Positions 8,979-37,068 of a stretch of 64,000 bases of DNA are shown here, one piece after another. Under the pieces are notes generated by a model, which was given only the letters and a program-made list of their open reading frames with translations, was not told the DNA's origin and did no database searches. This stretch comes from Candidatus Iainarchaeum sp. GTDB taxonomy: Archaea; B1Sed10-29; WALL01. The translations under genes were made by a program, and so were the position numbers. The first letter of the stretch is position 1. Each line of letters begins with the position of its first letter. The stretch lies in assembly GCA_023129115.1 (NCBI GenBank), contig JAGMCR010000004.1, positions 1 through 64,000 of the forward strand. The letters run 5' to 3'.

Positions 8979-9402
8979 GTATAGGCGCTCCTCTACCCTC
9001 AATGGGGTGAGGAAAGGTGGAGCCCACCCAGCCATGGAGAATACGAGGCACGCACCCTATCCTCAAGAATTCGTGTGCACTTTGCCTTCCGCAATGGAAA
9101 GCAAAGAGACTTATTTTTACTTCAAACTGATATATAAAACCTTTGCTATAAATGCGCTTTTTTTAACACTGGCACTTTTTTTAACACACCAGATTATCAT
9201 CAATTAACTAAACAAACGTCACGCAGTAATGTTATTACACTATACGTTTGTCCAGTGCAGAGAAAAGTTTATATACATGTAAGCCATAATGACTTTGGAG
9301 ATAAACATGGTCTCCAAAAACTACACCTAACCGAGGGGAAGGTGAACGGGCCCACCCAGCCAAAGGGGAAATATTGTTGGTTCACAACTCCCCTCCCCAC
9401 CC

Positions 9403-9615: not shown

Positions 9616-9678
9616 GGGTGTAGTTAAGGGGTTTGTATATAAAAGACGTTACACAAAAAACCCGTGTGGACGCGTAGC

Positions 9679-9740
9679 AACCCTTTTCCTGTTACGGGAC
9701 CATAAAGGTCCCGAACGGTGGAAAAGCGTTGGCGGAAAAA
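9679..9740 (+). repeat. Palindromic repeat element family A, copy 1 (AACCCTTTTCC...GGAAAAGCGTT..CGGAAAAA)
   Basis: Ends near-identical to the copy at 36995-37068 and similar to the reverse copy at 12627-12682; flanked by the 15-bp direct repeat GTGTGGACGCGTAGC. Confidence 0.75.
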
Positions 9741-9746
9741 GAGTGT

Positions 9747-9903
9747 GGACGCGTAGCCTAGTTTGGATAAGGCACTGGCCTCCTATTCGGTTACGCCCGA
9801 GGGCGATGACTGTTCCTCTGTACCGAGCCACTTCGGTGGTGATGAGGTTATGAACAACCGAGGAGCCAGCCAGGAATCGGGGGTTCAAATCCCCTCGCGT
9901 CCG
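9747..9903 (+). tRNA. tRNA-Arg(CCT) with an 82-nt intron at 37/38 (9786-9867)
   Basis: Acceptor GGACGCG/CGCGTCC; anticodon stem CTGGC/GCCAG; T-arm GGGGG-TTCAAAT-CCCCT; strict BHB with CTCC/GGAG helix, bulges TA|T and CC|A, outer helix TCGGTT/AACCGA. Confidence 0.93.
9803..9861 (+). ncRNA. Putative intron-encoded C/D box sRNA inside tRNA-Arg
   Basis: GCGATGA (C), 13 nt, CCGA (D'), UUCG hairpin, GTGATGA (C'), 12 nt, CCGA (D). Confidence 0.65.
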
Positions 9904-9946: not shown

Positions 9947-9972
9947 GGGGGGACGCCAATTGGCGTCCCCCC
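9947..9972. repeat. G6...C6 palindrome, family B
   Basis: Perfect 26-bp palindrome GGGGGGACGCCAATTGGCGTCCCCCC; related copies occur elsewhere in the window. Confidence 0.7.
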
Positions 9973-11165: not shown

Positions 11166-11339
11166 GGGGTCGTGAGGTAACTTGGCATCCTGAAGGCTTT
11201 TGAGATTTAATCGTCTCTTAGCCGGGAAAGTGGCTCCAGGGTTCCTTGAAGTGTGGTATGCTGAGGCCTGTTGGCCGATGATTGCACTTTGGAGCGAGGA
11301 TACCACTATTTCCGTGTTCAAATCGCGGCGACCCCACCA
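11166..11339 (+). tRNA. tRNA-Trp(CCA) with two introns, 27/28 (11194-11229) and 37/38 (11240-11301); CCA end encoded
   Basis: Acceptor GGGGTCG/CGACCCC-A-CCA; T-arm CCGTG-TTCAAAT-CGCGG; after splicing the anticodon arm reads AGTGG-CT-CCA-GA-CCACT; BHB-like motifs at both introns. Confidence 0.85.
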
Positions 11340-23078: not shown

Positions 23079-23584
23079 GGGCTGAACCTCTCAATCTTAT
23101 AATAAGTAATGTCGCCCTCCTTGTCGACGAGGGCGTAAATCATTTTCTTGCGGACGTTCTGCGCCAGCCGCACCTTCCCAGAGAAAGTGTGGAAGTCGCA
23201 CTTGAACTCCTCCGGCACGCAGTGCACCAGCCAAATCGCGTGCGCCTCCCCCGGGCGGACGCCCCTCCCGTACACGCGGTAGTGCGTGCCAAACTTGAAC
23301 CCGGTCTTCACGACGTAGCCCCTGCCACGCAGGTCCCGGTAAACAATATACTTCCTCGGGAACTCCTTGTCGCTGCGGCTGAACGACTTCATCATCCCGT
23401 TGAAGTCCAGCTCCTTCTTCCCGCTCGTGACCACGAAGCTCTTGCGCTTTTCCTTGAGGAACAGCGCCTCCTCCGGGGACAGGAAGACCTTGCCGTCCTT
23501 CTCCTCGCCGAAGCCCCGGCCCGCCAGCTCCTTGGCCTCCTTCTCGTCAGTCACCCAGACGCGCCCCTTGATTATTATTGCCAT
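23075..23584 (-). CDS. endA: tRNA-intron (splicing) endonuclease, single-unit catalytic subunit
   Basis: VYRDLRGRGY, TGFKFG.HYRVY, catalytic His (EAHA), RLA..VRK; 169 aa. Confidence 0.93.
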   Translation of the reverse strand: MAIIIKGRVWVTDEKEAKELAGRGFGEEKDGKVFLSPEEALFLKEKRKSFVVTSGKKELDFNGMMKSFSRSDKEFPRKYIVYRDLRGRGYVVKTGFKFGTHYRVYGRGVRPGEAHAIWLVHCVPEEFKCDFHTFSGKVRLAQNVRKKMIYALVDKEGDITYYKIERFSP

Positions 23585-36994: not shown

Positions 36995-37068
36995 AACCCT
37001 TTTCCTGCTACAAGGGGCTTGCTTGCCTGCAAACCCCTTGAACGGTGGAAAAGCGTTAACGGAAAAAA
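36995..37068 (+). repeat. Palindromic repeat element family A, copy 2
   Basis: AACCCTTTTCCTGCTAC-[hairpin]-GAACGGTGGAAAAGCGTTAACGGAAAAA, starting 2 bp after tRNA-Ile. Confidence 0.75.

Follow-up and report, generated by a model that had tools for sequence, protein, structure and literature searches.

The tRNA-Arg(CCU) locus and its intron

The 64,000-nt stretch of DNA analysed here (hereafter, the window) comprises positions 1-64,000 of the forward strand of contig JAGMCR010000004.1 in assembly GCA_023129115.1 of Candidatus Iainarchaeum sp. It is contig C14 of G000, a 1.25-Mb archaeal bin of 19 contigs that is 88.6% complete and whose lineage is a small-genome DPANN group. The window carries a tRNA-Arg(CCU) gene interrupted by an intron (Table 1), which, as judged by sequence comparison, is probably a box C/D small RNA (sRNA) whose D guide directs 2'-O-methylation of U2552 in the A loop of 23S ribosomal RNA (rRNA).

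The gene is matched by the Rfam tRNA model with 49.7 bits over 9747-9903, with an 84-nt insertion in the anticodon loop, and is reported by ARAGORN, when introns are allowed, as tRNA-Arg(cct) with an 82-nt intron; default ARAGORN overlooked it. The intron is bounded by a strict bulge-helix-bulge (BHB) structure. The anticodon stem (9775-9779/9869-9873) is followed by a 4-bp central helix (9780-9783/9862-9865), in which GGAG (9862-9865) pairs with C32-C35 of the anticodon loop, and an inner helix is formed in the pre-tRNA by UCGG (9787-9790) and CCGA (9858-9861). The bulges are U9784 A9785/U9786 and C9866 C9867/A9868, the slash marking the exon-intron boundary. The arrangement is that of archaeal hBHBh' introns, with two 3-nt bulges, a 4-bp helix between them, flanking helices and an insertion at position 37/38. 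Across ten orthologous introns, 13 BHB pairs (127 alignment cells) remain standard in 98.4% of cells, with two pairs changed on both sides. The 82-nt intron and its strict BHB, both described in the initial annotation of this DNA, are thus borne out by ARAGORN and by pair retention among orthologues.

The DNA search for tRNA-Arg orthologues covered 61 relatives; the order is represented by 13 genomes in this collection. Eight more members of the order (G002, G003, G004, G005, G006, G009, G010 and G011) proved to have the gene with a long, alignable intron, and a scan of metagenomes added two contigs, one a duplicate of G009 and the other from a new close relative (L162). The ten aligned orthologues referred to throughout are the introns of the window genome, these eight genomes and L162. 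The tRNA-Arg intron of G007 and G012 is only 15-16 nt long and lacks boxes, and the gene search gave no match in G001 (89% complete) or G008 (66% complete). A 16-nt pattern scan of genome contigs was unspecific, returning at least 120 stretches that were mostly chance matches in bacteria; among the scan matches listed, four had GGTTCRA within 45 nt downstream, three of them known tRNA-Arg loci and one a chance match (L127). The locus of the window itself is confirmed by DNA contigs from two samples of one study, a confirmation that concerns its sequence and says nothing of expression. Several orthologous genes contain a second intervening sequence, situated in the T-loop region in G009 (L007) and G006 (L009) and in the D-loop region in G005 (L003) and G004 (L005).

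Table 1. Coordinates in the window of the tRNA-Arg(CCU) gene and of the elements predicted in its intron (10/10, all ten orthologues)
Feature	Position	Strand	Basis
TATA-like promoter element TATATAAAA of the tRNA-Arg gene (putative)	9636..9644	+	shared motif
tRNA-Arg(CCU) 5' exon, positions 1-37	9747..9785	+	Rfam RF00005; ARAGORN, introns allowed
Anticodon CCT	9782-9784	+	within 5' exon
82-nt intron at the canonical 37/38 position, probable box C/D sRNA	9786..9867	+	BHB, orthologue alignment
Intron 5' segment; GGC 9802-9804 is the 5' strand of stem I	9786..9804	+	stem I covariation
Box C, AUGACUG	9806..9812	+	ATGACT invariant 10/10; both stem II pairs 10/10
D' spacer UUCCUCUGUA, 10 nt, without convincing target	9813..9822	+	shuffles, tRNA scan
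Box D', CCGA	9823..9826	+	pairs C9824-G9846, C9823-G9847
UUCG-capped hairpin, canonical stem of the C'/D' kink-turn	9827..9840	+	sequence, predicted folds
Box C', AUGAGGU	9842..9848	+	ATGA invariant 10/10; constant 12 nt before AGGA 10/10
D guide UAUGAACAACCG, 12 nt; 9850-9859 pair with 23S 2558-2549	9849..9860	+	complementarity, covariation
Box D, AGGA	9861..9864	+	AGGAG invariant 10/10; homologue boxes at identical offset
3' strand of stem I, GCC; C9866 C9867 also first two nt of the 3' BHB bulge	9865..9867	+	covariation
tRNA-Arg(CCU) 3' exon, positions 38-73, CCA not encoded	9868..9903	+	Rfam, sequence

Box register and predicted kink-turns

Every motif that the initial annotation had read in the intron is present, namely GCGATGA (9803-9809), CTGTTCCTCTGTA (9810-9822), CCGA (9823-9826), the hairpin GCCAC-TTCG-GTGGT (9827-9840), GTGATGA (9839-9845), GGTTATGAACAA (9846-9857) and a second CCGA (9858-9861). 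Its view that they make up a complete C/D RNA holds in that both a C/D and a C'/D' motif can be recognized, but its boxes C, C' and D have to be shifted 3 nt downstream, giving C = AUGACUG, D' = CCGA, C' = AUGAGGU and D = AGGA as the functional set. When the orthologous introns are aligned, the earlier register is broken and the shifted one is kept. In the earlier register, the first GA of box C is lost in 2 of 10 orthologues (CTATGA in G009, CAATGA in G006) and that of box C' in 6 of 10, while box D (CCGA) becomes CCAA in G006 and G009, covarying with its BHB partner (UCGG to UUGG). This covariation indicates that what keeps CCGA 9858-9861 in place is the splice-site helix, not a role as a box. 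Stems drawn in the earlier register are paired in 40.8% of 49 alignment cells, compared with 98% of 50 cells for stems I and II of the shifted register, where 9 cells are changed on both sides; this level of pairing was matched by none of 500 column shuffles, and slid controls gave 38-66%.

Three segments make up the invariant core of the intron: ATGACT close to its 5' end, ATGA ahead of the second spacer, and TGAACAACC-R-AGGAG at its 3' end. The spacing ATGA, 3 nt, 12 nt, AGGA is kept in all ten orthologues. In a 7-nt box frame, the C'-to-D spacer is 12 nt in 10/10, and the C-to-D' spacer ranges from 9 to 12 nt (10 nt in the window). The terminal kink-turn (k-turn) comprises stem I (9802-9804/9865-9867), a bulge of G9805, A9806 and U9807, G9808 and A9809 opposite A9864 and G9863, and stem II (C9810-G9862, U9811-A9861); the GA dinucleotides are invariant, and their G.A pairs are presumed to be sheared. 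Stem I forms throughout the alignment as GGC/GCC, UUC/GAA, CUC/GAG, CCC/GGG or, with one mismatch, UCC/GGU. The CU that follows AUGA is invariant because its partner has to be the AG of AGGA, which is fixed in turn because GGAG pairs with C32-C35 of the anticodon loop. Box D therefore overlaps the BHB, its A9861 belonging to the inner helix and its G9862-A9864 facing C35-U33 in the central one, and the boxes AUGACUG and AGGA seem to have been reshaped because their nucleotides are shared with the splice-site structure.

The internal k-turn consists of the hairpin at 9827-9840, a bulge of G9841, A9842 and U9843, G9844 and A9845 opposite A9826 and G9825, and the pairs G9846-C9824 and G9847-C9823. 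In the orthologues, the hairpin is swapped for other hairpins or for 3-nt linkers, and the pair next to the G.A pairs (3b-3n) varies widely (G-C, G.U, A-U, C-G, U.U, A.C or C.U). Watson-Crick pairs directly after the tandem G.A pairs are also a feature of the k-turn in the 5' stem-loop of U4 small nuclear RNA (AAUGAGG/CCGA). The C'/D' motif of the window (GAUGAGG/CCGA) resembles it and the C/D motif (GAUGACU/AGGA) does so in principle, although U4 is a spliceosomal RNA and not a guide.

An internal control for AGGA as a box D in this lineage is provided by the tRNA-Trp(CCA) gene, whose intron has the layout AUGAUUG-12 nt-AGGA, with C34 opposite the fifth nucleotide upstream of box D (the N+5 position), and a CUGA-linked D' guide whose N+5 falls on position 39; tRNA-Trp introns classically target these two sites in their own tRNA. 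The gene lies at 11166-11336 in the window, 1.3 kb downstream of tRNA-Arg, and was overlooked both by ARAGORN and by Rfam at the gathering threshold. Besides its canonical 62-nt intron (11240-11301), it carries an extra 35-nt insert (11194-11228) relative to G002. In G002, tRNA-Trp is located about 110 nt downstream of tRNA-Arg; in the window, a protein gene lies between the two.

A guide complementary to the 23S rRNA A loop

The two spacers had been described as pairing poorly with the exons of their own tRNA, and this is the case: the longest run reaches 6 nt with the D' guide and 4 nt with the D guide, and the self-targeting of positions 34 and 39 known from tRNA-Trp is not found in the tRNA-Arg intron. 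In its functional register, the D guide reaches a best run of 7 nt (tRNA-His) among the 46 predicted tRNAs of the genome. By contrast with its own exons, 23S rRNA offers an extended match. Guide positions 2-11 form 10 of 10 Watson-Crick pairs with the 23S fragment of G000 itself (C7:73521-73530), so that the fifth nucleotide counted upstream from box D, A9856, faces U2552, with which the A loop of helix 92 begins (E. coli numbering, by alignment to E. coli K-12 rrlH). The same A loop, again with 10 Watson-Crick pairs, was the best rRNA match of the D guide in all six relatives first tested. The intron thus shows what is expected of a C/D guide, namely at least 9 bp with a stable RNA and N+5 on a plausible 2'-O-methylation site. 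One article describes U2552 as a nucleotide quasi-universally present as 2'-O-methyluridine (Um), a modification for which either RrmJ or guide RNAs are responsible (PMC2584109), and another lists it as a predicted C/D sRNA target in five archaeal species (PMC4644070).

The complementarity is maintained by covariation. All ten pairs are kept in each of the nine genomes in which both the guide and the A loop are available: rRNA UUCAC is accompanied by guide GUGAAC in five genomes, UUCGC by GCGAAC in one (G023), and UUCAU by AUGAAC in three genomes from two separate lineages (the genus of the window and G014). The informative positions of the guide are 10 and 11, and both follow the changes in rRNA.

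Covariance-model searches for rRNA found none in G000, which proved to be a miss, and fragments of both large and small subunit rRNA were then recovered with blastn. C7:73145-74155 is the last 1011 nt of 23S rRNA, located at a contig end and containing GGTTGTTCAT, and C1:70733-70985 is the first 253 nt of 16S rRNA, also at a contig end.

Free-standing homologues of the guide

The guide is not confined to introns. Of the 31 genomes of the phylum, 16 contain one and only one instance of the pattern ATGA-N5-YGAACARCC-N3-GA, and a reversed control pattern was not found in any. In G007 and G012, the genomes with short tRNA-Arg introns, the guide resides in a textbook free-standing sRNA with a terminal stem and the layout AUGAUGA-12 nt-CUGA-3 nt-AUGAUGA-12 nt-CUGA. 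Here the guide ends 1 nt upstream of CUGA, the same offset at which AGGA stands in the intron, and the box found at that offset among the homologues is CTGA, ATGA, CAGA or CCGA, with canonical boxes in G007, G012 and G014. The free-standing sRNA of G007 is matched by 31 Rfam C/D families, all below gathering, the best being sR2 (E = 0.002).

A third arrangement is seen in another family of the class. In G030, G021, G027 and G023 (L168-L171), which are all four of the guide-bearing genomes of that family, the gene for the guide sRNA stands about 105 nt from tRNA-Arg(CCU) and diverges from it, so that linkage between the guide and this tRNA gene reaches beyond the intron-bearing lineages.

The U2552 guide is the D guide in the intronic copies and the D' guide in the free ones. 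The second guide of the free G007 sRNA falls on G2581 when placed on the rRNA of G011, and the D' guide of the G005 intron can be laid on the same nucleotide (see below). The G005 intron and the G007 sRNA thus appear to share U2552 and G2581 as putative targets in swapped order, as in a circular permutation. Such an order would result if a circular sRNA intermediate had been inserted, which is one possible origin.

A candidate free-standing C/D sRNA of another kind was noted on the minus strand of C1 in G000, near 65725, with the layout AUGAUGA-12 nt-UUGA-hairpin-AAUGAAA-13 nt-CUGA and a 3-bp terminal stem.

Machinery and proposed mechanism

The components required for such a pathway are encoded in the genome. 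Fibrillarin (PF01269, 260 bits) and Nop5 (PF01798, 212.8 bits) are adjacent on C5, an L7Ae-family protein (PF01248, 98.1 bits) and the ligase RtcB (PF01139, 474 bits) are found on C4, and the splicing endonuclease EndA (PF01974, 110.2 bits) is located in the window at 23102-23362. The RtcB match is split into two parts (profile 1-50 and 49-426) that lie about 1.5 kb apart in a single 994-aa open frame (G000 C4:41556-44339), which suggests an intein-like insertion.

Two folds compete for the same nucleotides. Before splicing, the BHB would lock up box D (AGGA) together with the three final nucleotides of the guide, GGAG pairing with C32-C35 and CCGA with UCGG at the 5' end of the intron. The k-turn and the splice-site fold are mutually exclusive because the BHB pairs box D together with guide nucleotides 1-3 and because stem I uses the last three nucleotides of the intron. 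Since they cannot coexist, a ribonucleoprotein (RNP) assembled on the excised intron is the simplest reading. The pathway that we propose would begin with cleavage by the splicing endonuclease at 9785/9786 and 9867/9868, after which RtcB would ligate the exons and probably circularize the intron. The freed intron would refold so that its ends meet in stem I (GGC 9802-9804/GCC 9865-9867). Following excision, UCGG 9787-9790 can presumably re-pair with CCGA 9797-9800 in a hairpin with loop 9791-9796; in the ligated intron, UUCGG 9786-9790 and CCGAG 9797-9801 would extend stem I into a continuous helix (U9786.G9801, U9787-A9800, C9788-G9799, G9789-C9798 and G9790-C9797, then stem I). The refolded RNA would contain one k-turn built from AUGA-CU/AG-GA and a second from AUGA-GG/CC-GA, on both of which L7Ae, Nop5 and fibrillarin would assemble; the guide (9850-9859) would then pair with nascent 23S rRNA at 2549-2558, and fibrillarin would methylate U2552. 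Release, circularization, refolding, L7Ae binding and methylation are all steps that we infer from the sequence. The suggestion in the initial annotation that the intron is released as a circular, trans-acting guide therefore fits as regards trans action and release by splicing, with circularity a plausible addition.

Alternatively, the guide may act inside the unspliced pre-tRNA-Arg, as first proposed for pre-tRNA-Trp. For tRNA-Trp, two articles describe the pre-tRNA as the molecule that is methylated (PMC7994747; PMC2584109), and guide nucleotides 9850-9857 are single-stranded in the BHB model. We nevertheless consider this unlikely, as box D (9861-9864) and guide nucleotides 9858-9860 are paired in the BHB in all ten orthologues and as stem I requires the 3' end of the intron, itself engaged in the BHB bulge and helix.

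A broader reading is that the guide is gated by splicing through these overlapping codes and that its family has moved between a free gene, a neighbour of tRNA-Arg(CCU) and an intron. We offer it tentatively, with doubt outweighing confidence. If it were true, A-loop methylation of new ribosomes would depend on the transcription and splicing of one tRNA gene, and the occurrence of one guide as free gene, tRNA neighbour and intron would offer a tractable case for how guide RNAs enter introns.

Counter-evidence and alternative explanations

Several observations weigh against a U2552 guide in the intron. The consensus boxes, RUGAUGA for C and C' and CUGA for D and D', are absent from it, leaving only xAUGA and xxGA cores, and binding of L7Ae to boxes as divergent as AUGACUG and AGGA is a supposition drawn from their sequence. 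Among the Rfam C/D families, only sR53 matches the intron, at a noise level of 11 bits (gathering 49, E = 6.3). The ViennaRNA minimum free energy (MFE) structure of the window intron is a different fold that sequesters box C, with the k-turns lying outside what the MFE model represents; in circular MFE folding, the 5' hairpin and stem I appear in 5 of 10 orthologues, the intron of the window not being among them. The match to rRNA is itself only moderately unusual in a single genome, since its score is equalled by 11 of 1000 shuffled guides when the 1-kb 23S fragment of G000 is the target and by 37 of 1000 when the complete rRNAs of G002 are used; what carries the case is therefore site, register and covariation. 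With respect to covariation, the pattern used to find homologues fixed 7 of the 10 guide positions, leaving positions 3, 10 and 11 free or half free. The D' spacer of the window matches rRNA no better than chance (shuffles do as well in 680 of 1000 cases on the 23S fragment of G000 and in 792 of 1000 on the G002 rRNAs), and among the sequencing runs searched for the tRNA-Arg locus, no RNA run had a match. Finally, FtsJ-family matches of 24.5-26.1 bits, just over the 24.1-bit cut-off, occur in 5 of the 13 genomes of the order, and two of the marginal matches (G007 and G011) cover the full-length domain. An enzyme that makes Um2552 may thus be present in the order, where the marginal FtsJ matches are the only sign of one.

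The last point bears on the possibility that the intron pairs with helix 92 as an assembly chaperone or antisense RNA, any Um2552 being made by a protein enzyme. The non-consensus boxes fit this idea, pairing alone could explain the covariation, and marginal FtsJ-family matches are present in 9 of the 13 genomes. Those matches never exceed 26.1 bits, however, whereas 14 of 14 control genomes were above the cut-off (the genomes of the order are 61-98% complete). Guide positions 2-11 form the duplex, and N+5 coincides exactly with U2552, a universally methylated nucleotide; all ten orthologues retain the 12-nt spacing, and the boxes of the free-standing homologues are fully canonical. Taken together, a chaperone or antisense role is quite improbable.

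Two further proposals carry very little probability. The first takes the target to be C34 of CAU-anticodon tRNAs (Met/Ile2), as the initial annotation had considered from a complementarity to their anticodon loops. The complementary sequence, TCATAACC, is indeed found in the anticodon loop of a tRNA-Met of the genome (C13:96310-96385), and it is as a target that the tRNA fails: the 8-nt match uses box C' nucleotides 9846-9848 and ends before the N+5 nucleotide, thus falling outside the register, and the guide segment concerned, GGTTATGA, is unconserved (AGTTGTGA, GGATGTGA and TGATGTGA in orthologues), although the tRNA-Met loops are conserved. The match arises from a G-to-A change, which a C-to-U change in the 23S A loop of the genus accounts for. 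The second, equally improbable, is that the intron is a structural k-turn RNA or a plain intron with no guide role, its box motifs and the TGTTC/GAACA pairing between spacers being incidental. In the MFE structure of the window intron, a portion of the D' spacer does pair with the D-box region, and that spacer lacks a target; yet 6 of 10 orthologues have not conserved TGTTC in their D' spacer, the guide is kept in three genomic contexts, and its covariation with 23S rRNA in 9 of 9 genomes contradicts this reading, which the initial annotation had left as its alternative.

Relation to known guide RNAs

The closest known system is the tRNA-Trp intron sRNA of Euryarchaeota (Haloferax volcanii; Pyrococcus sR50), likewise a long BHB intron at position 37/38 with C/D and C'/D' boxes. 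According to passages of two articles, it assembles into an L7Ae/Nop5/fibrillarin RNP and is circularized after splicing (PMC7994747; PMC2584109). The tRNA-Trp intron methylates its own tRNA, whereas the tRNA-Arg intron is complementary to 23S rRNA and not to its own exons; the host also differs, being tRNA-Arg(CCU), as does box D, supplied here by the strand paired with the anticodon loop. In the passages that treat them, C/D sRNAs from tRNA introns are credited by a 2021 review with action on the tRNA only, tRNA-Trp being the case cited (PMC7994747), and a 2011 paper names only tRNA-Trp introns as embedding a C/D sRNA (PMC3218864). A partial precedent for another host is the 66-nt intron of elongator tRNA-Met in the DPANN archaeon N. 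equitans, reported by Randau in 2012 as stable, with C/D-like elements 'potentially guiding RNA methylation' (PMC3491384). It shares with the present intron a non-Trp host tRNA and the proposal of a stable C/D sRNA; its host and boxes are different, and in the passage concerned no target is named for it, whereas a target supported by covariation can be assigned to the tRNA-Arg intron. Within the literature covered (main texts of freely accessible articles), neither a guide in a tRNA-Arg intron nor a tRNA-intron guide for rRNA was found to be reported.

As regards the target, both the nucleotide equivalent to U2552 and the N+5 rule are shared with free-standing archaeal C/D sRNAs, predicted for this site in five species (PMC4644070), and with yeast snR52 (PMC2584109). 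Compared with these, the tRNA-Arg guide is intronic, is a D rather than a D' guide, and has non-consensus boxes C and D. Modification of this nucleotide is also attributed to RrmJ/FtsJ/RlmE (PMC2584109), a protein-only enzyme whose product is identical to the one predicted here. If the U2552 assignment is right, tRNA-intron C/D RNAs would gain a new host, tRNA-Arg(CCU), and a new class of target, the ribosomal A loop, and tRNA splicing would be tied to maturation of the peptidyl-transferase centre in small-genome DPANN archaea. Guides such as this one are missed by searches for canonical boxes.

The D' spacers

No target for the D' guide of the window was found among the 46 predicted tRNAs of the genome. 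Its orthologues show scattered matches. The D' guide of G011 forms 9 Watson-Crick pairs and 1 G.U pair with 23S 2487-2496, with N+5 on U2491, and the D' guide of G010 matches the same segment and nucleotide; as 38 of 1000 shuffles do as well for G011, this is suggestive only. The D' guide of G005 forms 10 Watson-Crick pairs and 1 G.U pair over 12 nt of 23S 2577-2588, with N+5 on G2581, again suggestive only, and it is not significant when scored by contiguous runs (678 of 1000 shuffles as good). A match of the G002 D' spacer to helix 45 of 16S rRNA (8 Watson-Crick and 2 G.U pairs) was rejected, being reached by 191 of 1000 shuffles.

Flanking sequences and a probable upstream insertion

The tRNA-Arg region is overlapped by mechanically called open reading frames only, and the flanking genes begin at about 9615 (minus strand) and 10010 (plus strand). 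The motif of the putative TATA-like element, TATATAAAAGACGTT, is also found in G002 and L162, about 26 nt ahead of the orthologous tRNA-Arg start. Downstream of the gene, at 9947-9972, lies a perfect GC-rich palindromic hairpin (GGGGGGACGCC-AATT-GGCGTCCCCCC), which has counterparts with compensatory changes in G002 (...TGCC-AATT-GGCA...) and L162 (...GCATC-AATT-GATGC...) and for which Rfam gave only a spurious match to a frameshift element.

Upstream of the tRNA, a 15-nt direct repeat, GTGTGGACGCGTAGC, present at 9664-9678 and 9743-9757, flanks a hairpin-forming element of about 64 nt (9679-9742). The promoter motif precedes the first copy of GTGTGGACGCGTAGC at the spacing that separates the motif from the tRNA start in G002 and L162, and for this reason 9664-9757 is read as an insertion. 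It seems to have duplicated the first 11 nt of tRNA-Arg together with 4 upstream nt, leaving a leader of about 80 nt. The possibility that this 79-bp upstream duplication is a second BHB intron was discarded, as no outer or inner helix was seen by hand inspection. The repeat and element are also present in the contig from the second sample.

The inserted element belongs to a repeat family, with 20 matches in the genome to its 3' module, including window 36996-37067 and G000 C4:3739-3792, 9195-9246 and 64034-64049. Its consensus is, roughly, ACCCTTTTYCTGTTAC-hairpin-GGTGGAAAAGCGTTGRYGGAAAA, and the family could represent a terminator-like element or one resembling a miniature inverted-repeat transposable element (MITE). 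A tRNA gene is found within 50 nt of six of the 20 copies, and other copies adjoin protein genes.

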